Shown piece by piece: positions 1-15,971 of a stretch of DNA of 15,971 nucleotides. Every line of letters starts with the position of its first letter. Within the stretch, counting starts at the first letter, position 1. The DNA is from Coleofasciculus sp. B1-GNL1-01 (GTDB taxonomy: Bacteria; Cyanobacteriota; Cyanobacteriia; Cyanobacteriales; Coleofasciculaceae). The DNA lies in NCBI GenBank assembly GCA_040220235.1, contig JAVJTO010000110.1; one strand, given 5' to 3'. The translations under genes and the position numbers were made by a program. The notes below the pieces were generated by a model. It was given only the letters and a program-made list of their open reading frames with translations. It was not told the DNA's origin and made no database searches.

Positions 1-56
1 CCTCTGGTAACGATTGACTCTCTAAAGGGATTTGACTTGCCTGTACTCGAGTCAAA
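1..56. repeat. Terminal direct repeat, copy 1 (identical to 15916-15971)
   Basis: cctctggtaacgattgactctctaaagggatttgacttgcctgtactcgagtcaaa occurs exactly at both window ends. Confidence 0.97.
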
Positions 57-301
57 CAAACCACCTGGTAAGGCTTGATCCGAGATAACCGTCGTCCCAC
101 TACATCTCCCGGACCCCAAAAGCCAAGGGTAACCAGTTGACCCTCTTCGTTCCAAGTTAGCGATCGCACGATACCTTGTTCAATTTTCCACAGATAGTCT
201 GAACCCAGAGGTAGCAAATCTTTGCGATTAAACGCTTTTTGGGGATACACAACATGCAGACGGGTGGGAAATATATAGGGGATTAATGTGGATAAAGACA
301 T
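1..301 (-). CDS. Crp/Fnr-family transcriptional regulator, 5' part (continues into 15581-15971 across the terminal overlap)
   Basis: Manual translation from ATG at 301-299: MSLSTLIPYIFPTRLHVVYPQKAFNRKDLLPLGSDYLWKIEQGIVRSLTWNEEGQLVTLGFWGPGDVVGRRLSRIKPYQVVC. It has no stop and is in frame with the 15581..15970 ORF. LWKIEQGIVRSLTW...TLGFWGPGDVVG is typical of cyanobacterial Crp-family N-domains. Absent from the ORF track because it runs off the edge. Confidence 0.9.
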   Translation of the reverse strand, partial: MSLSTLIPYIFPTRLHVVYPQKAFNRKDLLPLGSDYLWKIEQGIVRSLTWNEEGQLVTLGFWGPGDVVGRRLSRIKPYQVVCLTRVQASQIPLESQSLPE

Positions 302-596
302 CGGCTGATTGATGGTTAATGGACAAAGAGTTTGAGGTGTGATTAGTTGTCGTTTTGGCACAAAAACATGGGGAATGTACACCGTTAGATCCAGGCGATG
401 CAGCGATTGGTTCGTAGTCTAAACAACCAATTGCCTCTTCCGATAAAGCCTTGCTAGGATGCACGGTACATTTGAGGCGATAATCTCCTGTAAAAAAGGC
501 ACAGTGGCGACAAGGAACTTGATGTAATCGCTTGAAACATTGATCTCTACAAAGGATGGAGCTGTTGCGAACACTCAGAACACAAACCCAAAAATT
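228..596 (-). CDS. Small Cys-rich cyanobacterial hypothetical protein, now fused in frame to a P1B-ATPase fragment (chimeric ORF 228-662)
   Basis: RLHQVPCRHCAFFTGDYRLKCTVHPSKALSEEAIGCLDYEP resembles a conserved small cyanobacterial protein (CxxC...C...HP...C). Its native N-terminus appears replaced. Confidence 0.6.
   Translation of the reverse strand, partial: NFWVCVLSVRNSSILCRDQCFKRLHQVPCRHCAFFTGDYRLKCTVHPSKALSEEAIGCLDYEPIAASPGSNGVHSPCFCAKTTTNHTSNSLSINHQSADVFIHINPLYISHPSACCVSPKSV
547..584. repeat. 38-bp direct repeat, copy 1 (copy 2 at 15463-15500)
   Basis: ctacaaaggatggagctgttgcgaacactcagaacaca versus ctacaaaggatagagctgttgcgaacactcaaaacaca, 36/38 identical. Confidence 0.93.
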
Positions 597-772
597 CAAA
601 ATAGCCGCTCCAATCGCCGCAAGGGTCATCAGCAAGTTCATATCTGCTCGACGCAGTTTCAAAGCAATCCATGCAGCACTAGATTTGCCTGAATGGTTTT
701 GGCACAGTTAGGGCAGTCCATCCCATTAACTATTGCTTGTAAGGTACTGTTCGAGGGGGTTGTTGGGTTCAT
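597..772 (-). pseudogene. Remnant of a heavy-metal P1B-type ATPase (CadA/ZntA-like)
   Basis: ATG 772-770 gives MNPTTPSNSTLQAIVNGMDCPNCAKTIQANL, containing the HMA GMxCxxC motif. A frame-shifting deletion near 680 then joins it to AAWIALKLRRADMNLLMTLAAIGAAIL, the transmembrane DMNxLMxxAxIGA motif. The rest is missing. It is divergent from the ArsR gene. Confidence 0.85.
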
Positions 773-867
773 GAGACAATTGACTATTGAGCAAAGACAG
801 GCGACCTGGATTATGATGCTCTTATCGACAGCCGGGTAATTCGATACAACTCGACCTATCCGGTTCT

Positions 868-889
868 CATATCAGTGATAACTGATATG
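868..889. promoter_or_regulatory. ArsR/SmtB-type operator 1 (9-4-9 inverted repeat)
   Basis: CATATCAGT-gata-ACTGATATG lies between the ATPase remnant and the ArsR gene. Confidence 0.8.
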
Positions 890-906
890 TCTTCTTTAAA
901 GCTATC

Positions 907-936
907 ATTAAATATCAGTAACAACTGATATGTCAA
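907..936 (-). promoter_or_regulatory. Sigma70-like promoter of the ATPase gene with operator 2 (912-931) in its spacer
   Basis: Minus strand TTGACA (936-931), N18, TTTAAT (912-907). ATATCAGT-aaca-ACTGATAT is a near copy of operator 1. Confidence 0.72.
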
Positions 937-949
937 GCCACAAGCCTGT

Positions 950-1220
950 TGCCGCTCGTAAATGTCTACCCACAACTACCCAAAACTCAGCATTTTGGGT
1001 AGGTGGGGTGAGCGTGCAGACTCAGCCGTAAAAAAGAGTAACCTACCATCTAGCAAGGTTGGCTACGCTTCCTTTTGTCATGACACCCAAGAATGAACGC
1101 TAGTTTTTGGCACTGTCGGAACGATCAACGAAAGGACCAGACATCTGAGAAAGCCCTCTGATACTCCATAACAAGCCTTAGAAGCATTGTCGAAGCTTTC
1201 CATTACTTTACGAAGGACTG
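950..1220 (+). ncRNA. HEARO / IscB-type omega-RNA-like scaffold without iscB (ends approximate)
   Basis: Landmarks in the expected order: hairpin ctacccaaaa (976-985) / ttttgggtag (993-1002), CAGACTCAG (1017), CTACG (1063), GTCATGACACC (1077), GAATG..GCTAGT (1091-1104), CTGTCG (1113), AAGCATTGTCGAAGC (1182-1196), CATTAC (1201). Recognised from memory of HEARO scaffolds, not by a covariance-model search. Confidence 0.65.
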
Positions 1221-1277
1221 GTCAAACCGACCAAACAAATTGTCCATAAATTAACGAACAGCAACCTACCCCTATCA

Positions 1278-1640
1278 ATGATTACCAAACCTCAAGTCAC
1301 CAAAACTCAAGCTACTGACCTGAAGGTCAAAATGTTTCGGGGATTTTCTGACTCCTCGCGTTTATCTATCCTTAATGTTTTACGAGATGGACCCAAGAAG
1401 GTCAACGAAATTGTTGAAGCAACAGGACTCACCCAGTCTAATGTTTCCAATCATCTGAGTTGTCTACGCTGTTGCGACTTGGTTGTCCGTCAACAGCAGG
1501 GTCGTTTTGTGTACTACCAACTCAGCGATGCCCGAATCGTCAAACTTCTTGACCTAGCTGATGAATTACTGGCTGATGTGGCTCTTGGTGTAGACTCTTG
1601 CACTCGCTATGATGTGAAAGATAGCGATCAAACAGTTTAA
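1278..1640 (+). CDS. ArsR/SmtB-family metalloregulator, CmtR-like (alpha4C site)
   Basis: Winged HTH (SRLSIL...TQSNVSNHLSCLRCCDLV...GRFVYY). CxxxC in helix 4 plus a C-terminal Cys (CTRY), as in Cd/Pb-sensing CmtR. Confidence 0.9.
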   Translation: MITKPQVTKTQATDLKVKMFRGFSDSSRLSILNVLRDGPKKVNEIVEATGLTQSNVSNHLSCLRCCDLVVRQQQGRFVYYQLSDARIVKLLDLADELLADVALGVDSCTRYDVKDSDQTV

Positions 1641-1671
1641 AATAGGTGTTAAAAGTTAGGGGTCTTCCGTC

Positions 1672-1782
1672 ATGGTTATGAAGCAAAACACCTTGTGGCT
1701 AGAGCAATTGAAATTTAACGAGATGGGATTGATTCCGGCGATTGCCCAGGACTATCAAGACAAAAGGAGCGGATGGAGTTAA
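1672..1782 (+). pseudogene. hisI: 5' stub of phosphoribosyl-AMP cyclohydrolase (HisI-like)
   Basis: MVMKQNTLWLEQLKFNEMGLIPAIAQDYQD matches the HisI N-terminus pattern (LKF...GLIPAIAQD). Similarity stops at about 1761, where isrB sequence begins. Confidence 0.72.
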
Positions 1783-2720
1783 GGCGGGTCATGCGTCGAT
1801 CCAGACGGGGAAGACGGATTAATCGGGAACTACCCTACTCCGAAAGATGTCACCGTCAAGCTCGGTTTGAGAATCGTAGACAAGGCAAATTACCGCCATC
1901 GATTCGGGCAAACAAACAGCTAGAGCTACGGATAGTCAAAGAGTTGTTTAAGTTGTTCCCCATTAGTGCCATTCACTATGAATTGGTTATGGCTGATGTC
2001 GATAGAACCAGTGGGCGCAAGTCGGCTCGGTCTGGTGTTGGGTTTTCTCCGGTGATGGTGGGTCAGCGGCAAATGTTGACTTGGTTGTCTGAGTTAGCGA
2101 CCGTTACAACTCACCAAGGATGGCAAAGGGATGGCAACGGAACCAGTCAGCTTAGGCAATGGTTAGGATTAGCCAAAGACAAGAAAAATAAGGAACAGCA
2201 AATACCAGCCACACACGCTGTTGATGGTGTTACCTTAGCCGCGTTCGAGTTCATCCAATGGCGGGAATGGCACTCTGATAATGCCAAACTTGGGTTATGG
2301 TGTGGTGATGTGCAAGTGACACCTGCACTGTTTGCGGTAATCCGTAGACCGCCAATTAGCCGTAGACAGTTGCATCTGTGCGTCCCATCCAAAGGGGGTC
2401 AGCGCCGGAAATATGGTGGCACTGTTACCCGCCATGGCTTCTCCAAAGGCGACAAAGTTATAGCATTAAAAGCCGGAAAGACTTACATAGGCTGGTGTTC
2501 TGGGGACACCAAGACACAAGTTTCTGTTTCCGATAAAAACTGGAAGCGGTTAGGGCAGTTTAGTGCCAAAAAAGTCCAGTTGTTGCAGCGAAGTACGGGG
2601 TTAATTGTCGTGCCTTCAACTAGACCCTTCAAATCTTCCCTTATTGAAAGGGTCGATTTGACCGCTATCCCTCTCCGGCTTGCTTCGCTCTTATCCGGAG
2701 TCTCACGCGAATTACGATGA
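1762..2720 (+). pseudogene. isrB: 5'-truncated IsrB (RRXRR family, IS200/IS605 OMEGA nickase)
   Basis: Arg-rich bridge helix RRVMRRSRRGRR, LPPSIRA, RuvC-II (IHYELV) and RuvC-III (HAVDG) are present, with no HNH. The PLMP domain, RuvC-I and upstream omega-RNA are absent. Confidence 0.85.
2665..2720 (+). mobile_element. 3' end of the IsrB element with subterminal hairpin and ATGA TAM-like site
   Basis: ctccgg...ccggag stem followed by tctcacgcgaattacg, then ATGA (2717-2720). An NTGA TAM is known for a characterised IsrB. Confidence 0.55.
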
Positions 2721-2754
2721 AGAGTCACTTTTCACGGCGGGTGCTGTAGAATAA

Positions 2755-3879
<1,125 letters not shown>

Positions 3880-3940
3880 GGGAGTGGGGAGTAGCCCCTT
3901 CATCCTTTCATTTTCCCAATTCGTTGAGAGGATTCTTCAG

Positions 3941-5080
3941 ATGATTCATTCAAAAACAAGATTACAACCATCCAGCAATCTCGTTCGTCAGTTTTCTGTA
4001 GTGGTTGTATCCGCGATCGCCGTTAGTTTAGGAAGTTGCCAAACGAATGCACCGACGACAAACACAGATTCACAAGCACAATCGACGACCGCCGCAACAA
4101 CGGATGAGTTACAAGTAGTGACAACGTTTTTGCCCATCACTCAGTTTACCAAAGCGGTGGCGGGCGATCGCGCTGAAGTCGTTCAACTGCTTCCCACTAA
4201 TGTGGGTCCCCACGATTACCAGGCAAAACCAGGTGATGCTCAGGCGATCTCCACTGCTGATGTGCTGGTGAAAAATGGCCTGGAAATGGAGTTCTTCCTG
4301 GATGACATGATCGAAAACGCCGAAAACGCTGACCTGGTGATTATCGACTCCAGCGAAGGCATTGCCACCCTTGATATGGATGATCACGGGCATAATCACG
4401 GGCATGATCACGGTCACGACCATGCCGAAGGGGAAGCCCACGACCATGACCATGCTGAAGCCGGACACCACCACCATCATCATGGCGAATTCAATCCTCA
4501 TGTCTGGTTAGACCCCAAACGGGCGATCGAGCAGGTGGAAAACATTCGGGATGGGCTGATTGCGGCTGATCCAGACGGTGAAGCAGAATACACCGCCAAT
4601 GCCGCTGCCTTTATTGGTGAACTGGAAGCGCTGGATGCCGAAATCACCGAAGAGCTGGCTCCCTTTGCAGGACAAACCTTTGTAGTGTTCCATGATTTCG
4701 CGCCTTACTTTGCCGAGAGCTATGGGCTGGAATCCAAAACGCTGGTGGGCATTCCCGAAGAGAATCCGTCTCCAGAGGACGTGAAGCAAGTAATGGAAAC
4801 AGTGCAGACGGAAGGGCTGAAAACAATCTTGAGCGAACCCCAGGCTGGGCAAAAGACGTTTGAGGCGATCGCCAATGACCTCAACATCGATGTCAGTATG
4901 TTTGACCCCATCGAAACAGGACCAGCCGAAGCGGTGCAACCCGACTATTACCTGACCACAATGCGTCAGAACGTCGAAAATTTAGTAAACAGCTTCGAGG
5001 CATCGAACCAGTCATGGCTTCCTCTCTGGGTGATCCAACCTGTGGCGGTCGTACCCCAACGGGTAGGTCTGCGGTTTTGA
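3941..5080 (+). CDS. znuA: Zinc ABC transporter substrate-binding lipoprotein
   Basis: Lipobox LGSC; cluster A-I ligands PHDY, NPHVW, FHD and SEP; 16-His loop at about 4379-4483. ATG 3941 is preferred over GTG 3884. Confidence 0.93.
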   Translation: MIHSKTRLQPSSNLVRQFSVVVVSAIAVSLGSCQTNAPTTNTDSQAQSTTAATTDELQVVTTFLPITQFTKAVAGDRAEVVQLLPTNVGPHDYQAKPGDAQAISTADVLVKNGLEMEFFLDDMIENAENADLVIIDSSEGIATLDMDDHGHNHGHDHGHDHAEGEAHDHDHAEAGHHHHHHGEFNPHVWLDPKRAIEQVENIRDGLIAADPDGEAEYTANAAAFIGELEALDAEITEELAPFAGQTFVVFHDFAPYFAESYGLESKTLVGIPEENPSPEDVKQVMETVQTEGLKTILSEPQAGQKTFEAIANDLNIDVSMFDPIETGPAEAVQPDYYLTTMRQNVENLVNSFEASNQSWLPLWVIQPVAVVPQRVGLRF

Positions 5081-5107
5081 TACCCGTTCAGTTTGAGTTT
5101 TGAGTTG

Positions 5108-5140
5108 GAACCCTGGGAATTCACGAGGAACTCAGGGTTC
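5108..5140 (+). other. Intercistronic stem-loop after znuA
   Basis: GAACCCTG (5108-5115) ... CAGGGTTC (5133-5140). No U-tract, so more likely an mRNA-stabilising hairpin than a terminator. Confidence 0.5.
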
Positions 5141-5209
5141 GAGGCTGTAGACTAACGGGGGAGAATCAGTATTCAGCAGTCAATTTCTTGTGTAGTAAGG
5201 GGGCGGTAG

Positions 5210-5974
5210 TTGAGCGATTCGGTTTTAGTCATTGATGGGTTAACGGTGTACCGTGAAACTCACCTGGCTGTGGAAAATGTGTCCTTTGAGGTGCAACCCG
5301 GAACAGACACCGCCATCGTCGGACCCAACGGAGCCGGGAAAAGTACTCTGATTCAAGCTGTGCTGGGCATCTTGCCGCGCCAATCGGGGGATGTGTTTGT
5401 CCTGGGGCAGCCCCTGTCTGCTAGGGGCTACTTACCGACCGAGGTGCGGCAACGCATTGCTTACTTGCCGCAAAACTTTTTGTTCGATCGCCGCATTCCC
5501 ATCACTGCCTCTGAGTTAGTAGGACTGGGTTGGGATCGGATGGAACCGCAACTGCCCTGGGCGGGAGGGCGATCGCGCCGTCGCGCCGTGCGGGAGGCGT
5601 TGACGCAAGTGGAGGCATGGCATCTGCGCGACCAACTGGTCAGTAGCTTATCGGGAGGGGAAACCAAACGGGTGCTGCTTGCCTACTGTCTGGTGCGTCC
5701 CCGCTCCCTATTGATTTTGGATGAAGCCCCAGCAGGTTTAGATGTGCGTAGTGAATCTGACTTTTATCAGTTGCTCTATCAACTGAAGCAGGAACAGGGT
5801 TGGGCGATTTTGCAAATTTCCCACGACCTGGATATGGTGCGTCGCAATTGCGATCGCGTCCTCTGCCTGAACCGCACGTTGCTTTGTCAAGGGGTCCCCG
5901 GTCACACCCTCTCACCAGAAAACCTGTCACTGGCTTATGGTTCCGAGTTCGTTCGTTATCATCATTCTTGCTAA
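5210..5974 (+). CDS. znuC: Zinc ABC transporter ATP-binding protein
   Basis: Walker A GPNGAGKST, signature LSGGE, Walker B LLILDE, SHDL, C-terminal YHHSC; TTG start. Confidence 0.94.
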   Translation: MSDSVLVIDGLTVYRETHLAVENVSFEVQPGTDTAIVGPNGAGKSTLIQAVLGILPRQSGDVFVLGQPLSARGYLPTEVRQRIAYLPQNFLFDRRIPITASELVGLGWDRMEPQLPWAGGRSRRRAVREALTQVEAWHLRDQLVSSLSGGETKRVLLAYCLVRPRSLLILDEAPAGLDVRSESDFYQLLYQLKQEQGWAILQISHDLDMVRRNCDRVLCLNRTLLCQGVPGHTLSPENLSLAYGSEFVRYHHSC

Positions 5975-5997
5975 ATTCCCACCGCTAAATTTCCATC

Positions 5998-6855
5998 ATG
6001 ACCATTCAGGCTGAACTCACTCGCATCATTGAACTCTTTCAACTACCCTTTATGCAGCGAGCACTCATCGGTGGAGTGTTAACGGGATTGATGGGCGGAC
6101 TGATGGGGAGTTTCACAATTCTCAGGCAGCTATCATTTTTTAGTGACGCGCTGGGACATTCAGCCTTGCTAGGCATCGGTATTGGATTACTGTTAGGGTT
6201 TGATCCTTCATGGGTGCTGCTGCCGTTTGCGGTCATTTTTGCCCTAGTCGTTGCTTATTTTCTAGAACGCACCCACCTCTGGACTGATGCTCTGTTAAAC
6301 ATCATTTACTCATCCTCCCTGGCGGTGGGAATTATCCTGCTCAGCTTCCGTGATGAATATCAAGGGGGCATCGGCAATCTGCTCTTTGGAGATATTCTCG
6401 CTGTGCAAACGAGTGATCTCATATTTGGCAGTGTGTTGTTAGGAGCTTGTGGGCTGTTTCTTGGCTTGACGTTGCGATCGCAAATTCTCCTCACCCTCAA
6501 TGAACCGATGGCGATCGCTCGTGGGGTGTCGGTGTCGGCTCATCGCACTGCGTTCATTGTGCTGCTGTCGCTGGTGGTGGGAATTTCGATTAAGGCGATC
6601 GGGGTATTACTGGTGAGTGCCTTTGTGGTCATTCCCGCCTGCGCCGCCCGGTTGCTGAGTCGTACATTTGCCAACTACGTGGTGCTATCGGCGGGGCTAG
6701 GGGCGTTGAGTGCGGTGATCGGCATGATAGTTTCTGCGGGGTTCAATTTGCCATCGGGTCCCAGTATTGTGGCAACCCAGTTGGCGATTTTTCTAACAGC
6801 AATGGCATTACCTCGATTGCGTGTCTTAGGACAGGGGGAACCACGCAATGTCTGA
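5998..6855 (+). CDS. znuB: Zinc ABC transporter permease
   Basis: ABC-3 motifs FFSDALGHSALLG, LLFGDIL, IGVLLVSA and PSGPSIV. Confidence 0.94.
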   Translation: MTIQAELTRIIELFQLPFMQRALIGGVLTGLMGGLMGSFTILRQLSFFSDALGHSALLGIGIGLLLGFDPSWVLLPFAVIFALVVAYFLERTHLWTDALLNIIYSSSLAVGIILLSFRDEYQGGIGNLLFGDILAVQTSDLIFGSVLLGACGLFLGLTLRSQILLTLNEPMAIARGVSVSAHRTAFIVLLSLVVGISIKAIGVLLVSAFVVIPACAARLLSRTFANYVVLSAGLGALSAVIGMIVSAGFNLPSGPSIVATQLAIFLTAMALPRLRVLGQGEPRNV

Positions 6856-7174
6856 CTCTGGTATTACTCCCAAAATCTTGAAGATGATCGACATTTTGGA
6901 AGCCCTGGAAACTCTGCTGGATAAAGCTCCCACGCCCGAAGTTGAAGCAATTCTGCAAGAAGCTTGGATTAAGGTAAGTGAAACCTTTCCTGAAGATTTT
7001 AAAGAGGCAACGCGAGAAGATGCTGGGGCAGAAGGACTGCGGCGTTATATTCGAGTCAAGGCATTTTTTGAGAATCCCACTGAGAATCCCATCAGTCCGG
7101 AACAATTAGAAGCCTACTATCGGAATCGTGAGCCTGTGGATGAGGATGAGGCAGAGTTTTTCTTTCCAGAGTGA
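6848..7174 (+). CDS. Acidic hypothetical protein, 108 aa
   Basis: The start overlaps the znuB stop (ATGTCTGA). Helical, Glu/Asp-rich composition; no family recognised. Confidence 0.7.
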   Translation: MSDSGITPKILKMIDILEALETLLDKAPTPEVEAILQEAWIKVSETFPEDFKEATREDAGAEGLRRYIRVKAFFENPTENPISPEQLEAYYRNREPVDEDEAEFFFPE

Positions 7175-7203
7175 GGGGCGATCGCAATCCAAATCGTTCA
7201 TAA

Positions 7204-7290
7204 TCAGTCGTTTGCCTGGAAATAATCGAGAATCCCTTGTGCGATCGCCTGTGCCATTTGGGTTCGAGTGGTACCGATCGCGCTTGGCGC
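7204..7290 (-). pseudogene. Possible C-terminal remnant of an N-acetylmuramoyl-L-alanine amidase (Amidase_3)
   Basis: Minus strand RTQMAQAIAQGILDYFQAND* (7266-7204) resembles the last helix of AmiC-like amidases. VRQAR in a neighbouring frame resembles the RGVRQARF motif. Confidence 0.5.
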
Positions 7291-7299
7291 ACCGCAATC

Positions 7300-7935
7300 T
7301 TAGTACCCGTTCGATTCATCGCGAATTGCAGCAATGCAGGCATTGTCCTCAGCACACAAATATCCCTGACGGAGTTTTTGATTAATGCTCACTACATGAC
7401 GGGCAAACTCTGAATCTGCGTCTTGAATATTGGGTAAATGATGAGCTTGTTGGGGGTTGGTAATGATTGAGCCAGATGCGATATATTTGCCCGCCGGAAT
7501 TTCTACATTCTCGATTAGTGCATGGGACATAACGATACAACCATCCCCAATACGAGCGTTAAACACAGTCGAGCGGAAGCCAATAAAGCAAGCGTTTCCC
7601 ACGTAAGCAGGACCGTGAATTAAAGCCATGTGCGTAATGGAAGCGTTATCGCTAATCCACACGGAGTAAAGCTGTCCATCATCCCCGATGACTCGTCCCT
7701 GTTCCAATCCATGAATCACCGCTCCATCTTGAATGTTTACATTCGCACCAATATAAAACGGCATTCCTTCGTCGGCTCGAATCGAGACACCGGGAGCAAT
7801 GTGAACCTGCGCTCCAATCCGCACATCCCCAATCACGTTGGTCAGAGGGTGGATATAGACGGTGGCATCTAGGGTTGGCTCAGCGAGTTGCTGTGACCAG
7901 GGGGTTGGTGGGGCAGGAATGTTGTACATAGTCAT
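7300..7935 (-). CDS. Stand-alone gamma-carbonic anhydrase, CcmM N-terminal-domain-like, without SSU-like repeats
   Basis: PPTPWS N-terminus, [19 protein letters not shown] and [10 protein letters not shown] (three His ligands), [11 protein letters not shown], and C-terminal [10 protein letters not shown]. It stops at 211 aa. Confidence 0.9.
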
Positions 7936-7940
7936 GTTAA

Positions 7941-7959
7941 AATGAGAGTGATTATCATT
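7941..7959. promoter_or_regulatory. Zur box in the divergent gamma-CA / cysS promoter
   Basis: AA-TGAGAGTGATTATCA-TT, 7-1-7 type. Confidence 0.85.
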
Positions 7960-8010
7960 CTAAATGCTACTGGGATACTTGATCCAAACCTTGACAATCC
8001 AAAATTTGCC

Positions 8011-9495
8011 ATGAGCCTCACTTTATACAACACATTGACTCGCCAAAAAGAGCCGTTCACAACAATTGAACCCGGTAAAGTCACAATGTATTGCTGTGGG
8101 GTAACAGTGTACGACTATTGCCATTTGGGTCATGCCCGGTCTTATATCGGCTGGGATGTAATGCGGCGTTATTTACAATGGCGGGGTTATCAAGTACGGT
8201 ATGTGCAGAACTTTACCGATATTGATGACAAAATTTTGAATCGGGCTAGAGTTGAAGGCAGCTCGATGCCAGAAATTGCCGATCGCTACATCAATATATA
8301 CTTTGAGGATATTCGGCGGTTGAACGTCATGGATGCCGATGAGTATCCTCGTGTCACCCAACATATCCCAGCGATTGTTCATCTCATCCAAGCACTGGAA
8401 AGCAAAGGCTATGCTTACGCCGTGGATGGTGATGTTTACTACAACGTGCAGCAGTTTTCCGAGTATGGCAAACTCTCTGGACGAAAAAGAGAGCAGATGC
8501 AAGCTGGGGCAGGTGGACGCATTGACCCAGGCGAACCAGAGGGCAAAAAACAAGACCCTTTTGATTTTGCACTGTGGAAAGCTGCCAAACCAGGGGAGCC
8601 TGCTTGGGATTCTCTTTGGGGTAAAGGACGACCTGGGTGGCATATTGAATGCTCGGCAATGATTCGTGCCCGATTGGGTGAAACGATTGATATTCATGGC
8701 GGTGGGGGCGATTTGGTGTTTCCCCACCATGAAAATGAAATCGCTCAATCAGAAGTGCTAACAGGTAAGCCCTTGGCTCGATACTGGCTACACAATGGCA
8801 TGGTGACAGTGAATGGGGAGAAGATGTCTAAATCCTTAGGCAACTTTACCACCATTCGAGATTTGTTAGACGGTAAATGGTCAGAGTATCCGCAGCCGAT
8901 CGACCCAATGGTCGTCAGGCTATTCGTTTTGCAAGCTCATTATCGTAAGCCCTTAGATTTTACGGCATCAGCCATTACCGCCGCTGTTCATGGCTGGCAA
9001 ACCCTCAAAGATGCGCTGAATTTAGATTGGCAGCAATGCAATCTATCGCCACAAGCTGCGATTCTTGATGAATTGGACTCACAGCGTTCGCGTAGCGTGT
9101 GCGCAGCACGTATCGCCCGTTTTCAAGCGGCAATGGATGATGACTTTAATACGGCGGCTGGATTAGCGGTGTTGTTTGAGTTGGCAAAATCCCTAAAACG
9201 AGAGTTTAATCAGCGTTGCTATCAAGGGTCTCAGGAACTTGAGGATGTGCAGTTACGTGCTTTATCGCAGACGTTGATACAGCTTGCTGGGGTGTTTGGT
9301 TTAGAGGTTGAACCCGAAACCTTACCTGTACCAGAGATTAATGTGAATTGGATTGAATCGCTACTGCAACAACGGCACCAAGCACGCCAAGAAAAACGCT
9401 ATGTCGAGAGCGATCGCATCCGTAATCAACTGCAAGCAGCAGGCATTACCTTGATTGATCAGCCCAACGGACAAACCCGTTGGCATCGTTTTTGA
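8011..9495 (+). CDS. cysS: Cysteine--tRNA ligase (probable Zur-regulated paralog)
   Basis: [11 protein letters not shown] start, [15 protein letters not shown] (HIGH), [17 protein letters not shown] and KMSKS. The Zn ligands are intact. Confidence 0.97.
9084..9116. repeat. SDR5-like insertion in a HIP1 site within cysS
   Basis: GCG|ttcgcgtagcgtgtgcgcagcacgt|ATCGC, which produces the atypical peptide [14 protein letters not shown]. Confidence 0.7.
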
Positions 9496-9525
9496 ACTCT
9501 CTAGTGGAAAGGAACAATTTTTGTG

Positions 9526-10053
9526 ATGACACTTGGTATGACTCCTATCCTTTCGGACTATCCCATATTCGGCACAGAGATTCGATGTCCTCAGTGCCAT
9601 CAACCAATTCCAGCCTTGTTACTCACAGACTCTTACGTTTGCCCTGAGCATGGAGCTTTTGAAGCCAACCCCAATACAGGGGAATTAGTTCATGTTCAGT
9701 CGGGGCGATGCTGGCATCAATGGGAAGGTCAATGGTATCGTCAGCATATTCATCCCGATACCCTACGCTTTGAAATCGCTGAGGCGCTTGAACACCTTTA
9801 TCGAAATGGATATCGAGCAACCCAGGTGATTGTTGCTCAACGGTATAAAGAGATGCTTGGCAACAGCTTAGAACATCATGCTGACTGGTTTAGGCAGTTT
9901 TATTTTGTGAAGCAACGATTGTATGGAGTGCCAGTGGAATTTAGCTCAGATCAACATACAGAACCTCGTTGGAAAATTATGAACTTTGAGTTTCAAACTG
10001 AACCGGGGAACCCAACGAACTATACTTATCCATTTCTCAAAGCATGGCGCTAA
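9526..10053 (+). CDS. TIGR02652 (DUF2396)-family cyanobacterial protein
   Basis: YPIFGTEIRCPQC...LTDSYVCPEHGAFEA...WYRQHIHPD..RFEI..ALE.LY..GYRAT; Zn-ribbon-like CxxC/CxxH. Confidence 0.85.
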   Translation: MTLGMTPILSDYPIFGTEIRCPQCHQPIPALLLTDSYVCPEHGAFEANPNTGELVHVQSGRCWHQWEGQWYRQHIHPDTLRFEIAEALEHLYRNGYRATQVIVAQRYKEMLGNSLEHHADWFRQFYFVKQRLYGVPVEFSSDQHTEPRWKIMNFEFQTEPGNPTNYTYPFLKAWR

Positions 10054-10127
10054 GAGGACAATGCCATAAAGGTTGACAGTGAATGCTTGGAAAAAGTAAA
10101 CCAATTTTCAATCAGGAGGTAAAAGCG

Positions 10128-10313
10128 ATGACAACAATTCAGCACTATGCAACGAATTACATTGAGAACGCCAAAGTATCGATGATTACTCCCACACAAA
10201 CCATTGAAGCTGCTTCGGTTGAGTACTGTATTGCCAGTGGCTACGTCAAAATTGTGACTCAAGATGAACGGACGTTAATTACACATATCAGCAACGTTGT
10301 CATTGAATGCTAA
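10128..10313 (+). CDS. Small hypothetical protein, 61 aa
   Basis: Strong RBS AGGAGGT (10114-10120) before ATG 10128. Beta-rich sequence ending LITHISNVVIEC. Confidence 0.75.
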   Translation: MTTIQHYATNYIENAKVSMITPTQTIEAASVEYCIASGYVKIVTQDERTLITHISNVVIEC

Positions 10314-10861
10314 AATAGGGCGCTGCCCCAAGCCAGAAGCAGCGAAAAGCTGACGCCTGCCACAACTTGCTGGCTCAAAAGCTTCAGGGCAAAGCGCCAA
10401 GATACCTCGCGCACAATAGTTAGGAGGGTGACAAGGCAAGGCAGAATTACACCTGCCAGATAGACGGCTGTGAGAATCTGCAAGGGGGTTAAAGCATCCA
10501 CTACATTCGGTTCGGTGAATAGCAAAATGCCATCCTTGCGAATAGAGGCAAGCACTACAGGTAAAGCGGCTTCAGCCGGAAGGCGAAACAATCCCATCAC
10601 AGGGCGAAGAACACCCGACAATAAAGAGAGAACACCTAGCCAGTCGAGTAGCGACGCAATAATTGTAATTCCCAAGAAGATGGGGATTGCCTGGAGAAAG
10701 AATTGAGATAGGGTGCTGCGGGCTTCGCGCCAGATGGCGATCGGGCGGGGAAATTCCAGGAAACTACGCCCTTCAACGAGCAACTTATTTAACGGCGATC
10801 GCGCTTTTTTGGGTGCTGTCAGTCGGGTGTAAATTAAGGTTGTTACTGTCAGATAGAGTAA
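10310..10861 (-). pseudogene. C-terminal part of a FeoB-like / gate-domain membrane transporter
   Basis: Open frame LLYLTVTTLIYTRL...FFLQAIPIF...LFRLPAEAALPVVLASIRKDG...LPCLVT extends to the IS end at 10862. No GTPase domain or native start. Confidence 0.78.
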
Positions 10862-12244
10862 TTGACACTCCCCCGGCTAAAAGAGCGCGGGGGATTCTTC
10901 CGTCTCAGGGATTCCTATGAATTTACCCTCAGAAAGCATCTTGACCGTGTGTCCCACGGCTGCAAGTCCACGAATACAGACTATTTGGGCGGCTGCTACA
11001 TCTCTATCAGTTGTGTAGCCGCAGTGACTACATGAGTGGACGCGCTCAGACAGTAGCTTTTTGCCCGTTTCTGTTAAGCAATTAGGGCATATCTGGCTAG
11101 TCTTTTTGGCGTCTGTTTTTAGGAAGAATACACCACGCTTAAAGCAGCATTGCTCTAGTATCTGGAGGAATTGACCCCAGCCAGCATCTAAACAATGCTT
11201 ACCCAACATCCCTCTGGCTAACCCTTTTAGATTGAGATCTTCGACGAATATCATACCCGCCCAGTCACATAGGTTATGGGCTAACTCCCAATGGTAATTT
11301 TTCCTTACGTTGGCGATTCGTTCATGCAGTCGGCTAACTTTAGCTTGTGCCTTTCTCCGGTTATTACTCCCTTTGCGCTTTCTACTTACTCTTTGTTGCA
11401 GCAATTTAAGCTTGCGTTCGAGTTTCCGAAAAGGCTTAGGATTGGGGAATAGTTTACCATTTGAAACGGCTGCAAAATGACTGATTCCTACATCTATTCC
11501 TATGGCTTCACCATGAGGCATTGGTTGAGGTACATCTAGATCCCACTGTAGGGTTAACATGACGTACCAACCTGATGCCCGTTTGACTACACGGGCTTGC
11601 TTGATGGTTGCCCCGTCTGGTATTGGACGTGATTGGTTAAACTTAACTAACCCAATCTTGGGCAACTTAACCGCAGTTCCTTGAATGGGTTCTTTTCCCA
11701 GTTGAGGAAACACGAAAGACCGCATTCTGCCAGCTTTCTTAAACCGTGGGAAACCGTGACCACCTTCCCACATACTGACAAATGCTTTTTCTAAACGCTT
11801 GAGCGTTTGTTGTAGCACTTGTGCGTTTACTCGTTGGAGATTTTTACTTGTTTTTTTGTATGTGGTTAAAGCTACGGCTTGCCTGTTGTAAGTAGGTCTA
11901 GGAGTATCAGCCGAAATGATGTATTCAGATCGGAGTGAACAGGCGTTAATCTGACACTTACGCGAGTTATACCAATCCTTGCGCTCGCCTAATGCGTAAT
12001 TATACACACGGCGGCACTGCTCTAACCAATCTTCAAAAATGGCTATCTGAGTTTTAGTCGGCTTTAACTTAAATTCGTAGGTCAGATTGAACAACTTGCA
12101 TCACCTCCTAACCCTAGTATACACCATTAACTAACTACCGTCAGGACGTTTGCTAGGACTCGTGGCTAAAGCCACTAGCTAGACGCTTTGCTCGATTTCA
12201 TCTCCCGGCTGTAGAGCGCGGGAGTCTTCACCATCGCTCACGCG
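10862..12244 (-). mobile_element. tnpB-only IS200/IS605-family (IS1341-like) element
   Basis: Minus strand: TTTAT (12249-12245) precedes the left end. Related subterminal hairpins are ctcccgcgctctacagccgggag (left) and cccccgcgctcttttagccggggg (right). The right end is ...gagtgTCAA at 10862. No tnpA and no target duplication. Confidence 0.85.
10877..12094 (-). CDS. tnpB: TnpB RNA-guided endonuclease
   Basis: N-terminal HTH, GFPRFKK, RuvC GIDVG / FVEDL / DRDVAAA, Zn finger CPNC...CSHC. AGGAGG RBS before the TTG start. Confidence 0.96.
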   Translation of the reverse strand: MFNLTYEFKLKPTKTQIAIFEDWLEQCRRVYNYALGERKDWYNSRKCQINACSLRSEYIISADTPRPTYNRQAVALTTYKKTSKNLQRVNAQVLQQTLKRLEKAFVSMWEGGHGFPRFKKAGRMRSFVFPQLGKEPIQGTAVKLPKIGLVKFNQSRPIPDGATIKQARVVKRASGWYVMLTLQWDLDVPQPMPHGEAIGIDVGISHFAAVSNGKLFPNPKPFRKLERKLKLLQQRVSRKRKGSNNRRKAQAKVSRLHERIANVRKNYHWELAHNLCDWAGMIFVEDLNLKGLARGMLGKHCLDAGWGQFLQILEQCCFKRGVFFLKTDAKKTSQICPNCLTETGKKLLSERVHSCSHCGYTTDRDVAAAQIVCIRGLAAVGHTVKMLSEGKFIGIPETEESPALF

Positions 12245-12261
12245 ATAAAAAAACTCAGCTA

Positions 12262-13401
12262 TTAACAAACACAATCATTGCTACAGCAGGAAAGGTCATC
12301 AAGAAATAAACCCTGTTCGCGGTAAACCTGCAAAGGTGAGGGATCTAAACCCAAACGTTGTGCGATCGCATCAGCCACCACCGCAAACCGCTGCCGGAAT
12401 TTATAGATAAAACAGAAAATCACATCCCCGTGACGCACAGAAGGTCCGACAACGAATAACCCTGAAGTGCGGGTCGATTCATCGCATTCATTCAGCACAG
12501 CATGTCCGTCTGACCAATGAAACAAGTGAGCTATGGTACTGAGACTGCCCTTAAAACCCGTACACAGAATAGGAGGCGTGGGACTCATCCACTGGCGATA
12601 CTCAAGCCTCTCATTTTCTTGCGCCCCGACGACAGCATAACCGTTGGCGTCGCGCTTGACTCCCACAATGTCCGTATTCCCAATCAGTTCAAGGCGACCT
12701 GTCCCATAGACAAACTCCAAGCGCTGTATTGTGTAAGGAGACAAAGAGATGCTCGGATCGGGGTTATTGGATGCCCAACTTTTTGCGCGATCGATTACTG
12801 CCACTCGTTTTCCCAAGGCAACTAAATTGGTGGCAGCATCCATTCCACTTTCATAACCGCCAATCACAATAACCTCCTCTCCCTGTATCTCGTCCCAGGA
12901 GCGTACCTGAGTATTTTGAATGCACAAATCGGCACCGGGAAAGGAATCGAGGCGCGGATACTGAAATTCTCCCGCCGCCCAAATGACAAAGCGGCTTTGG
13001 ACATCGCCTTGGGAAGTTTTGAGGATAAACCCTTTTTCTCCTGGTAGTGCTTCAATATCGTGAACCTCAATGCCCGTTTTTACTGGAAGCTGAAAATGCT
13101 CGACAACCGTTTGTAAATAGAGGGCATACTCCTTACCCGTTAGGTGTTCTCGTCGAAAAGATAGAGCTGGGGAGGTATTTAGAGCTACTGCATTCAGGTC
13201 GAGTAACCCAAAGCCGTGACTGGGAAACGACGGGGTAATAAATCGCATTTGTGCGGGCCAGCGATTAAAAGATGCTCCCACTTCATGGCGCTCTAACAGG
13301 ATAAAATTTTGGAGTCCTAAATCTTTGAGAACGACCCCACAACCGACCCCCGCCGCACCCGCACCGACAATGACTACATCCAAGATTTTAGAAGAATTCA
13401 T
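12262..13401 (-). CDS. NAD(P)/FAD-dependent oxidoreductase (CzcO-like / pyridine nucleotide-disulfide type)
   Basis: GAGAAG and GGYESG Rossmann motifs, FCFIYKFRQRF, and Cys-rich tail DDLSCCSNDCVC. Confidence 0.88.
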   Translation of the reverse strand: MNSSKILDVVIVGAGAAGVGCGVVLKDLGLQNFILLERHEVGASFNRWPAQMRFITPSFPSHGFGLLDLNAVALNTSPALSFRREHLTGKEYALYLQTVVEHFQLPVKTGIEVHDIEALPGEKGFILKTSQGDVQSRFVIWAAGEFQYPRLDSFPGADLCIQNTQVRSWDEIQGEEVIVIGGYESGMDAATNLVALGKRVAVIDRAKSWASNNPDPSISLSPYTIQRLEFVYGTGRLELIGNTDIVGVKRDANGYAVVGAQENERLEYRQWMSPTPPILCTGFKGSLSTIAHLFHWSDGHAVLNECDESTRTSGLFVVGPSVRHGDVIFCFIYKFRQRFAVVADAIAQRLGLDPSPLQVYREQGLFLDDLSCCSNDCVC

Positions 13402-13476
13402 TACAGCTATTAACTAGAAAGCAGTTACCAGTTTCTGTACGGTCAGACCTAAATTATTTTCTCTAACTTGACAAGG

Positions 13477-15348
13477 TTAAAGCGTTGATTTCTCTTCAAT
13501 CACTCCTTGCAGACAAGCTTGCAACTCAGCTAAAGTTAGCATTCCTAACTCTCCCCCCTTCCTTGTCCGCACACTCAGAGTTTGATTTTCTACTTCCCGT
13601 TTACCGACTACAGCAACAACGGGAATTTTTTCTAACTCTGCATTGCGAATTTGCTTACCCAAACGCTCTCCACTGCGGTCAATCTCAACCCGATACCCAG
13701 TTTTTTTAAGAGTGGTGGCAACTGATTCTGAATACTCCCGTTGAGCATCGCTCACGGGTAACAGACGCACCTGAATGGGGGCTAACCACAAGGGGAAATC
13801 ACCTGCGTAATTCTCAATTAAAATCCCGAAAAAGCGTTCCAACGAGCCAAAAATTGCTCGGTGAATCATAATCGGTTGTTGGCGACTTCCATCAGCAGCG
13901 ACATATTCCATATTGAAGCGATCGGGTAAATTGAAATCGACCTGAATTGTCGAACATTGCCAGAAACGACCAATGGCATCTCGAATCTTAAGGTCAATCT
14001 TGGGACCATAGAACGCGCCACCCCCCACATCTTCAATATAATTCCAACCTTTGGCAGCTAAAGCTTGTTTTAAAGCTGTTGTCGCTAACTCCCAAACGTC
14101 ATCGGTGCCAACAGATTTAGCCGGACGAGTGGATAAATTAACCTCATAATCGGTAAAGCCAAAATCTGATAAGATTTGCTCGGTTAGATTTAATACTCCA
14201 ATGATTTCATCGGCAATCTGATTGGGTAAGCAGAAAATATGAGCATCATCTTGGGTGAATCCTCGGACACGCATCAAACCATGCATAACGCCTGAGCGTT
14301 CGTAGCGATAAACTGTTCCTAATTCAGCAAAGCGTAAGGGAAACTCGCGGTAAGAATGCAGGTCCTGCTTATAGGTCAGAACGTGAAAGGGACAGTTCAT
14401 CGGCTTAATTTGATAAGCCTGTTGTTCAATATCCATTGAGTCAAACATATTCTCTCGATAAAAATCAAAATGACCCGATGTTTTCCACAGTTCCAGATTG
14501 GCGATATGGGGTGTGTAAAGGAGTTGATAACCTGCTGCTAGGTGAGACTTTTTCCAGTAATCTTCGATAATGTTACGTATCGCTGCGCCACGCGGATGCC
14601 AAAAAACTAAGCCACCGCCAGCATCGTCTTGGATACTAAAGAGTTTGAGGTCTTGACCAATTTTTCTATGGTCGCGTCGCTTGGCTTCTTCTTTTTGTTG
14701 AAGGTAAGCCGAGAGTTGTTCGGGTGTTTCCCAAGCCGTACCATAGATGCGTTGCAACTGAGGTTTGGTTTCATCTCCCCGCCAGTAAGCACCCGCAACA
14801 GTTTCTAAGGCAAAAGCATCGGGATTGATTTCTCCAGTGAAGTTGACGTGAGGACCAGAACATAAATCCCACCAGTATTCATCCGGCGGTAGCGTCACTT
14901 GTTCAAATAGAGAAGGTTCTGGCTGGATTGTATCGGTTGACCCTCTGCCGCAATCAGGGTTACCGATGAAGTAGCGGGTAATAGTTTCTCCTTCGGGAAT
15001 AAAGTCGAGGATTTCCAGCTTGTAGGGTTCCCCTAACTGCTCAATTTCCCCACGAATCTCTTCCCGATCTACAACTTCGCGGATAATTGGCAAGTTAGCG
15101 TTGATAATCTGCCGCATTTTGGCTTCAATGCGGCTCAAGTCATCTGGGGTAAAGGGTTGCTGGCGATCAAAGTCGTAGTAAAATCCGGTGTCTGTGGTGG
15201 GTCCAATCGTTACTTTTGTCTGTGGGAGGAGAGTTTGCACTGCCATTGCCAAGATGTGAGCGCAGGTGTGGCGAATTCGCTCTAGTTTTTTTGGGTCATC
15301 TTGGTGAGGACTGTTCTCAGACAGAGACTGAGTTAATTGACTGACCAT
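13477..15348 (-). CDS. thrS: Threonine--tRNA ligase (probable Zur-regulated ThrRS2)
   Basis: Editing domain RHTCAH...DLCSGPH; catalytic motifs KPMNCP, RVRGFTQDDAH, AFYGPKID and IHRAIFGS; anticodon-binding domain. Confidence 0.98.
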   Translation of the reverse strand: MVSQLTQSLSENSPHQDDPKKLERIRHTCAHILAMAVQTLLPQTKVTIGPTTDTGFYYDFDRQQPFTPDDLSRIEAKMRQIINANLPIIREVVDREEIRGEIEQLGEPYKLEILDFIPEGETITRYFIGNPDCGRGSTDTIQPEPSLFEQVTLPPDEYWWDLCSGPHVNFTGEINPDAFALETVAGAYWRGDETKPQLQRIYGTAWETPEQLSAYLQQKEEAKRRDHRKIGQDLKLFSIQDDAGGGLVFWHPRGAAIRNIIEDYWKKSHLAAGYQLLYTPHIANLELWKTSGHFDFYRENMFDSMDIEQQAYQIKPMNCPFHVLTYKQDLHSYREFPLRFAELGTVYRYERSGVMHGLMRVRGFTQDDAHIFCLPNQIADEIIGVLNLTEQILSDFGFTDYEVNLSTRPAKSVGTDDVWELATTALKQALAAKGWNYIEDVGGGAFYGPKIDLKIRDAIGRFWQCSTIQVDFNLPDRFNMEYVAADGSRQQPIMIHRAIFGSLERFFGILIENYAGDFPLWLAPIQVRLLPVSDAQREYSESVATTLKKTGYRVEIDRSGERLGKQIRNAELEKIPVVAVVGKREVENQTLSVRTRKGGELGMLTLAELQACLQGVIEEKSTL

Positions 15349-15360
15349 AATCCAAGAATA

Positions 15361-15383
15361 AAAATAATAATCATTCTCATTTT
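15361..15383. promoter_or_regulatory. Zur box upstream of thrS
   Basis: AAAA-TAATAATCATTCTCA-TTTT (minus strand TGAGAATGATTATTA), just upstream of the thrS ATG. Confidence 0.85.
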
Positions 15384-15462
15384 AACAGAAAAGCCTGGAT
15401 TCAGGCTACATAGAGGAACTTGATCTCGATTAAATTCATCCATGCATGATGTCAATTGACCA

Positions 15463-15500
15463 CTACAAAGGATAGAGCTGTTGCGAACACTCAAAACACA
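15463..15500. repeat. 38-bp direct repeat, copy 2
   Basis: 36/38 identical to 547-584. Confidence 0.93.
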
Positions 15501-15558
15501 TCACCTGTAAGCTATCCAAAACCTCTTGTGGAAGTGTTACCTGCTTCAGTCATTGACA

Positions 15559-15579
15559 GGTGGGCAGTGTCCACCCTAC
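15559..15579. repeat. Cyanobacterial short dispersed palindromic repeat
   Basis: GGTGGGCAGTGTCCACCCTAC resembles the common GGTGGGCAnTGCCCACCCTAC repeat and lies just downstream of the Crp stop. Confidence 0.6.
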
Positions 15580-15580
15580 G

Positions 15581-15971
15581 CTAGATCAAGGTTTTGATGC
15601 TTTCAAAATGCAAATTTTCAGTACCATTGTACTGAGAATGTTCACCCGTGGTGAGGATGAGATTTCGACGCGATCGCACAATCCTCCCTTCCTGTTCCAA
15701 ACGATTGATCAGGCGTGTAACAGTTACCCGAGTAATCCCAATCGTCTCGGAAATATCCTGATGAGTCAGGTGAAAGTTCAGCAATTTACCCTGAGGAACT
15801 GTTTGTCCAAAATGACAGGATAGCCATTCCAACAGATGCAGCAGGCGGGCATAGGCAGAGTGCTGATGTAGAATATTCAATAGTTCTTCGCTTTTGCAAG
15901 CATGAATCAGTAACGCCTCTGGTAACGATTGACTCTCTAAAGGGATTTGACTTGCCTGTACTCGAGTCAAA
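15581..15971 (-). CDS. Crp/Fnr-family transcriptional regulator, 3' part (HTH)
   Basis: RLLHLLEWL..FG....LTHQDISETIGITRVTVTRLINRLEQEGRI is a Crp-type HTH. It joins in frame to 1-301. Confidence 0.92.
   Translation of the reverse strand, partial: LTRVQASQIPLESQSLPEALLIHACKSEELLNILHQHSAYARLLHLLEWLSCHFGQTVPQGKLLNFHLTHQDISETIGITRVTVTRLINRLEQEGRIVRSRRNLILTTGEHSQYNGTENLHFESIKTLI
15916..15971. repeat. Terminal direct repeat, copy 2 (identical to 1-56)
   Basis: Exact 56-bp match to the window start. Confidence 0.97.

Follow-up and report, generated by a model that had tools for sequence, protein, structure and literature searches.

Does the window, a stretch of 15,971 nt that is at the same time the entire contig C110 of the Coleofasciculus sp. 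B1-GNL1-01 assembly (G000; 172 contigs, 8.66 Mb, rich in HIP1 octamers), represent a small circle carrying zinc-starvation genes, or a piece of the chromosome at whose borders the assembler stopped? The sequence-only reading had closed it into a circle on account of its matching ends. We consider it most likely that the window is a single-copy segment of a chromosomal Zur-regulated island which lies between direct repeats of a crp-family regulator gene. The order in this sample would be C5, crp copy A, window, crp copy B and C41. The two crp copies, direct repeats of about 95% similarity, would share one identical core, at which the assembler would have broken the sequence and left an overlap of 56 nt.

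The matching ends are real: bases 1-56 and 15916-15971 are 100% identical, and crp reads across the join over 636 nt (211 aa) with no internal stop. However, the end match is not diagnostic of a circle, because C5 and the window are identical over their final 141 nt and the terminal overlap (1..56) therefore also equals the last 56 nt of C5. It follows from the assembly graph, in which it was left by a collapsed crp repeat. As the repeat is crp itself, an open crp frame over the join is expected under any reading. Other paths have one as well, with 203 aa for the C5 end joined to the window start, 198 aa in C45 and 209 aa in the related genome G004.

The contigs of G000 appear to stem from a de Bruijn assembly with k=141 (the assembler is not named), and exactly 141 nt are common in 91 of the 102 contig-end pairs having a shared suffix. 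The collapsed crp repeat would be 226 nt long (15831..141, from 2x141-56), and the overlap presumably measures 56 nt because this repeat unitig is missing from the contig set, where the shortest contig kept has 1,769 nt. Overlaps of 30-140 nt account for 97 of 144 exact end-to-end contig links; a sibling contig sharing the 141-mer was found on both sides for 48 of these 97, on one side for 22 and on neither side for 27. Only one other contig among the 172 overlaps with itself, namely C156 (1,769 nt, overlap 136 nt), which loops between C25 and C102 in the same shape as the window does. C156 has no stop-free frame of at least 150 aa. A terminal overlap which is shorter than k and common to another contig can thus serve as the mark of a collapsed repeat in cases of a false circle.

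The crp node of the graph has three entries (C5, the window tail and C45) and three exits (the window head, C41 and C86). Read on the minus strand, C41 and C86 have their first 141 nt in common, 93-95% like window 312-452. C45, also read on the minus strand, has overlaps of 135 nt with C41 and C86 and contains a third crp, which is 92-94% similar to window 15559-15971 and 1-446. The window is not an isolated graph cycle as expected of a plasmid, since the ends of C5, C41, C86 and C45 carry the crp repeat. Two resolutions of the loop are allowed, C5-crp-window-crp-C41 or C5-crp-C41 plus a circle, and the contigs of G000 fit both. In relatives (C197 of G004, C356 of G005, C550 of G007 and C122 of G002) as well as in the metagenome contigs L071 and L072, C86 pairs with a separate crp copy, which leaves C5, the window and C41 to pair with each other. 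The graph permits equally well that recombination between the crp repeats excised the window as a free circle, either lost over time or replicated in trans, and that the chromosome retains an empty site C5-crp-C41. We regard this as unlikely, and we prefer the linear form because rep and par are absent and depth is equal in all four sequencing runs compared. One linear copy between two Crp-containing repeats, which the sequence-only reading had named as the finding that would refute it, is the arrangement that most of the evidence favours. An assembly loop was among the three options offered by that reading; the closure into a circle is not supported.

The absence of a rep, par, relaxase, integrase or tnpA gene had been noticed before, and NCBIfam models matched no such gene in any of the 50 open reading frames (ORFs) of at least 60 aa in the window. 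Replication or integration genes were likewise found neither in 18 ORFs scanned with Pfam nor in 12 scanned with PHROGs, and Rfam gave no match at the gathering threshold. A free circle would thus have neither a rep nor a par gene, nor room for one: nearly all of the sequence is accounted for, as had been stated, with assigned features spanning 15,112 of the 15,971 nt and a largest gap of 129 nt. The window contains neither the initiator or partition genes of an autonomous replicon nor the integrase or relaxase and att sites of an integrative element, and its flanking repeats are gene copies. In a six-frame search of the genome the phage integrase family (PF00589) was found solely on C127 and C135, and DUF3854, a Rep-associated family in cyanobacterial plasmids, solely on C70. 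A 24-nt crp motif matched no viral contigs, which also speaks against the free circle. A segment replicating within the chromosome would not need a rep gene.

Depth was compared in the Logan contigs of four out of 19 matching runs (X1, X2, X16 and X3, from three studies); no RNA run is among the 19. These contigs belong to related strains (word share 0.79-0.82), and their depths, not being copy numbers, were compared as ratios within each run only. The cargo shows a depth of 9.6-12.4 in X1, 14.6-17.4 in X2, 108-130 in X16 and 8.6-11.4 in X3, and the C41-type allele at 546 one of 10.3, 15.4, 121 and 12.9, respectively. The coverage check proposed earlier therefore gives, in close strains, a cargo depth equal to the C41-type depth in 4/4 runs, which argues against the free circle. 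The join contig (18.9 in X1, 26.4 in X2 and 214 in X16) has about 1.7-2x the cargo depth, as for a collapsed two-copy repeat. The join contig of X3 (depth 181) was excluded from this ratio, since it stems from an abundant strain and the cargo shows no such depth. The same figures bear on the idea that the segment is chromosomal but tandemly amplified, C5-(unit)n-C41, with its copies collapsed, a state for which zinc limitation would select. In favour of this, the unit has direct repeats on its two sides that are identical in their core, and the P1B ATPase/ArsR remnant duplicated beside an intact P1B gene suggests an earlier duplication of the region. However, cargo depth is not above that of the C41-type contig in any of the four runs, and we hold such an amplification to be improbable. 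The depth argument is limited because low-copy plasmids can match chromosomal coverage, as PMC13577107 notes; the same source counts collapsed repeats and wrong circularisation among frequent errors.

Relatives carry the cargo in longer contigs. In the congener G004, contig C194 (134.7 kb) comprises window 7298-10861, 12245-15971 and 1-334 linearly at 96-98% identity and then C41. The junction from the second threonyl-tRNA synthetase gene (thrS2) through crp to C41 is contiguous there, a further point against the free circle. In G005, C265 joins C41 19316 directly to the thrS2 promoter. In G019 a contig of 7.47 Mb contains, at 3.49-3.52 Mb, the groups hemB2-znu, gamma-carbonic anhydrase-cysS2-DUF2396 and oxidoreductase-thrS2 but no crp. 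Past window 15500 it continues with 34 C41-like nucleotides (C41 20349-20316) within the 3' end of a Fur-family gene, so that the former left flank of thrS2 is to be found on C41. In G002 the backbone order on C122 is C23-C5-C41-C45-C86-C29, the slot of the window being between C5 and C41, and the left end of the window contains remnants of the P1B gene of C5. G007 is 98-99% identical and breaks in crp at both ends, as G000 does. The IscB and TnpB insertions of the window are missing from X1, X2, X16 and G007, in all of which 348-724 is deleted. The strains differ by independent insertions and deletions, so the segment has been passed on over a time sufficient for divergence, and this requires replication. 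One crp tail in X1, X2 and X16 has lost 15541-15798, and the thrS2-side tail of G007 is intact; under linear pairing both lesions, 348-724 and 15541-15798, might fall in one crp copy. Among 52 family genomes and a 401-genome order sample, searched with two candidates scored per genome and with G004 and G007 absent from its listing, no further genome resolved the junctions.

It is very improbable that the whole island, including the window, is located on a large plasmid or an integrated mobile element. Homologous clusters are found on cyanobacterial plasmids of 79-394 kb. The island is also patchily distributed within the genus, with 95-99% identity of its DNA across separate species-level genomes, which suggests horizontal exchange. 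On the other hand, in G004 and G002 the island continues into DNA about 90% like many other G000 contigs, with ordinary genes (RNA methyltransferase, pterin-binding enzyme), the cluster of G019 belongs to a contig of chromosomal size (7.47 Mb), and the only DUF3854 match is the one on C70.

Several observations weigh against the linear arrangement in the chromosome. With a best share of 0.82, none of the 19 runs resembles the source sample. A circle at low copy number could have the same depth as the chromosome, and no Logan piece among those listed extends across the repeat into unique sequence on both flanks. G002 joins C5 to C41 without cargo, and the metagenome contig L073 (2,107 nt) joins a C5-type crp tail directly to C41. 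L073 is an empty site C5-crp-C41, reciprocal to a window circle. It is identical to C5 in 450 of 451 nt, including flank missing from the window, 97.9% identical to C41 19222-20622, and the same as the window at 142, where k arithmetic expects a branch. Of the two junctions needed by the linear model, contigs support thrS2-crp-C41 only; the junction C5-crp-window start was seen in no contig, and the left junction is derived from the graph only.

The existence of this empty-site haplotype, with the alleles 305C and 307T that the graph predicts for the missing short unitig, favours the free circle, as do a microhomology join at 588-596, which fits the formation of a circle or a duplication, and the fact that clusters related to the window cargo ride on plasmids. 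However, L073 is short, could be an assembly chimera and carries 15812A, otherwise seen only in the window tail among eight tails compared. Three origins are conceivable for it: an empty allele occurring in nature, the product of a loop-out, or a chimeric join made over a tract of 390 identical nt. A metagenome scan with the 24-nt crp motif gave three contigs, namely L071 and L072, which pair C86 with crp, and L073; cargo was present in none of them. Each model has one of its two junctions observed in another assembly. C5 has T at both 15812 and 15830, where the window tail has A and C, and at 307 the window head has G and the C41 side T. The crp copies are mosaic, and phasing of single nucleotide polymorphisms with relatives is largely uninformative: the thrS2-side crp copy of G004 has 307T as predicted for the missing unitig, but matches the window head at 323-333.

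A tentative proposal, possible but rather doubtful, is that recombination between the crp repeats, whose core of a few hundred bases would be kept identical, excises a 15.9-kb circle or amplifies the cassette without any mobility gene, and that the circle re-enters an empty C5-crp-C41 site in another strain. If so, mat populations would hold filled and empty alleles in a ratio following zinc supply. The direct repeats would make the segment a possible substrate for RecA-type loop-out or amplification. RecA-dependent gene duplication-amplification and translocatable units are known examples of amplifiable or excisable units flanked by direct repeats. As in these units, the cargo here would be placed between direct repeats of about 1 kb and an empty-site allele exists; unlike them, the repeats are copies of the crp gene and not insertion sequences, and neither amplification nor a circle was detected. 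The earlier suggestion of an excisable or amplifiable unit thus keeps some support from the empty site, found in one short contig, and receives none from cargo depth, which was raised in none of the four runs. If filled and empty alleles interconvert via the crp repeats, a stress module including translation genes could be gained, lost and amplified without transposase or integrase.

Turning to the cargo of the segment, the identification as a zinc-starvation gene set is supported by zinc-enzyme paralogs, predicted Zur boxes at promoters, a ZnuABC importer and a HemB2 of the zinc-independent type. The sites were scanned with a cyanobacterial Zur consensus. With at most two mismatches three sites occur in the 16-kb window, all at gene starts, whereas the rate in the whole genome (15.8 per Mb) would predict about 0.25; C41 holds 10. 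A pattern with four matches against 0.04 expected had been modelled on the window's own Zur-like sites and was not counted as a test. The first Zur-box-like palindrome (2760..2774) lies upstream of hemB2 (porphobilinogen synthase, 2782..3879, + strand), whose product is 55% identical to the copy on C51 and lacks the Cys zinc ligands that the C51 copy retains (CLCEYTSHGHCG). It is followed by znuA (His-rich), znuC and znuB of a zinc-type ABC transporter (3884..6855, + strand; ZnuA, ABC_tran and ABC-3 domains). An acidic ORF of 108 aa (6848..7174, + strand) comes next; the region is conserved in G019 (73%). This ORF has no family match in Pfam, NCBIfam or PHROGs and no usable atlas match, which shows neither novelty nor a role in replication.

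The second palindrome (7943..7957) is located between two divergent genes. One encodes a CcmM-like gamma-carbonic anhydrase paralog (7300..7935, - strand; 211 aa, 63% identical to the C48 copy) and the other, cysS2, a second cysteinyl-tRNA synthetase (7942..9495, + strand; likely start at 8011, 61% identical to the C17 copy). The carbonic anhydrase is longer in relatives, with 335 aa in G004 and 315 aa in the G019 orthologue, which includes one domain resembling the Rubisco small subunit. The match to both relatives ends at about 7298-7307, so that the C-terminal domain appears to be lost in this lineage. Downstream of cysS2 follow a DUF2396/TIGR02652 paralog (9523..10053, + strand; 57% to the C65 copy), an ORF of 76 aa (10083-10313) without a Pfam or NCBIfam family match, and the 3' remnant of a FeoB-like gene (10302..10861, - strand; Gate domain), which in G019 encodes 555 aa. 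A TnpB-only element of the IS200/IS605 family (10862..12249, - strand) occupies a place where relatives have other DNA. It is no simple insertion, as it replaces about 1.1 kb including most of the FeoB-like gene, relatives having 1,103-1,107 other letters there. An oxidoreductase dependent on flavin adenine dinucleotide (12262..13401, - strand; Pyr_redox_3) precedes thrS2 (13477..15348, - strand; 50% to the C109 copy), and the third palindrome (15365..15379) is found upstream of thrS2. HemB, CysS, ThrS, the carbonic anhydrase and the DUF2396 protein each have a copy with 50-63% identity on another contig. Judging from this gene set and the literature, Zur would leave the three operators when zinc becomes scarce, and its release would provide the zinc importer, a zinc-free HemB, the second cysteinyl- and threonyl-tRNA synthetases and the CcmM-type carbonic anhydrase.

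Under the preferred chromosomal reading the window adds to the cyanobacterial Zur islands that combine thrS2 with cysS2. In Anabaena thrS2 is described as Zur-repressed, 200-fold induced under zinc limitation and supporting tRNA charging and growth then (PMC4787780), and hemB2, thrS2, folE2 and znuABC appear in a list of the Anabaena Zur regulon (PMC6103462). As in the thrS2 operon of Anabaena PCC 7120 (all4725-all4721), as far as these sources present it, thrS2 of the window has a Zur-type site just upstream and is accompanied by hemB2 and znuABC, with COG0523 genes close by on C5 and C41. The window differs from that operon in three respects: hemB2 and thrS2 belong to two distinct units that converge, the set includes cysS2 and a CcmM-type carbonic anhydrase, and crp direct repeats would flank it. 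A paper of 2009 (PMC2770081) reported Zur regulons containing paralogs of HemB, CysRS, ThrRS, Cam and HisI, including a HemB2 without Cys ligands as in the window. The accessible part of that paper lists mainly proteobacteria and mentions neither flanking repeats nor excision.

Plasmid-borne COG0523 genes are reported for Acaryochloris (PMC3323870). A 307-kb plasmid of Gloeocapsopsis dulcis (NZ_CP119970.1) carries thrS, cysS, a CcmM-like gene, folE and genes for GTP-binding proteins, and plasmid A of Trichormus variabilis (NC_007410.1, 366 kb) carries thrS, hemB, znu, a porin gene and LanM. These two are typed replicons, whereas the window lacks rep and is linked in the graph to contigs of chromosomal type. 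The Gloeocapsopsis cluster, where thrS and cysS occur together, weakens the earlier remark on how unusual a mobile module with two aminoacyl-tRNA synthetases would be. None of 608 matching plasmid records covers 80% of query 2700-10000. The cargo is therefore of a known kind, and what is particular here are the crp direct repeats and the empty-site contig. No report on a zinc island in Coleofasciculus nor, judged by titles and the opening of abstracts, on excision or amplification through direct repeats in connection with zinc limitation or cyanobacteria was found in literature outside subscription papers (including a 2012 Anabaena zinc study) and supplements; these may list cyanobacterial cysS2 clusters.

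At the left end of the window, the 5' part of crp (1..301, - strand, with ATG at 301) belongs to one of three genomic crp copies. Its upstream flank (312..596) is 95% like the C41 end and, up to 535, 93% like the C86 end. It contains copy a of a 46-nt repeat (539-584) and ends in the microhomology CCAAAAATT (588..596), where C41-type flank is joined to the interior of the P1B ATPase gene of C5. This looks like a join point as made by tandem duplication or circle formation, and it shows that a unit with these boundaries was once duplicated or circularised. The linear form could then have arisen from tandem duplication with differential loss or from a circle that integrated at crp. At the right end follow copy b of the 46-nt repeat (15455..15500), whose sequence is single in G019, and 58 nt (15501..15558) left from an ORF beside a PIN gene on C5 (13008-13070). 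The stretch 15559..15971 starts with a short genome-wide repeat (15559-~15640) and contains the 3' part of crp (- strand); it is 95% like the C5 end, with the last 141 nt identical. The crp module is thus located between the two 46-nt repeats.

The ORF at 228-662 looks chimeric, with a P1B-ATPase membrane segment followed by C41-type flank with the 46-nt repeat and, as its last part, the 3' portion of a small Cys-rich ORF which precedes crp on C86. The P1B remnant itself (588..950, - strand) comprises the 5' end and promoter of a heavy-metal P1B ATPase gene and is internally deleted, the intact copy being at C5 9474-11939. A palindromic pair (868-888/912-934) lies within it. Next come an insertion of 317 nt (951..1268), missing from some related-strain contigs, and a gene for an ArsR/SmtB metalloregulator (1278..1640, + strand), which adjoins an intact P1B ATPase gene in G002. 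The 5'-truncated IscB element (1764..2716, + strand) appears to be a recent insertion because it is missing in G007, X1, X2 and X16. In these four (G007: C580, L024) the deletion of 348-724 puts crp 46 nt behind the P1B remnant, so that crp might be transcribed there from an ArsR-controlled promoter.

The zinc island extends beyond the window, with six COG0523 matches, folE, metE, znuABC and two OprB porins on C5, C41 and C45. Among the ten Zur-like sites of C41 (L003), the region 3284-13945 encodes a peptidase ABC exporter and two lanthipeptide synthetases of the LanM type. In G019 and on Trichormus plasmid A, too, LanM is a neighbour of the zinc cluster. On C86 (L004), 3840-9374 encodes a protein of 1,845 aa combining a caspase-like peptidase, TPR repeats, RelA/SpoT and TGS domains.

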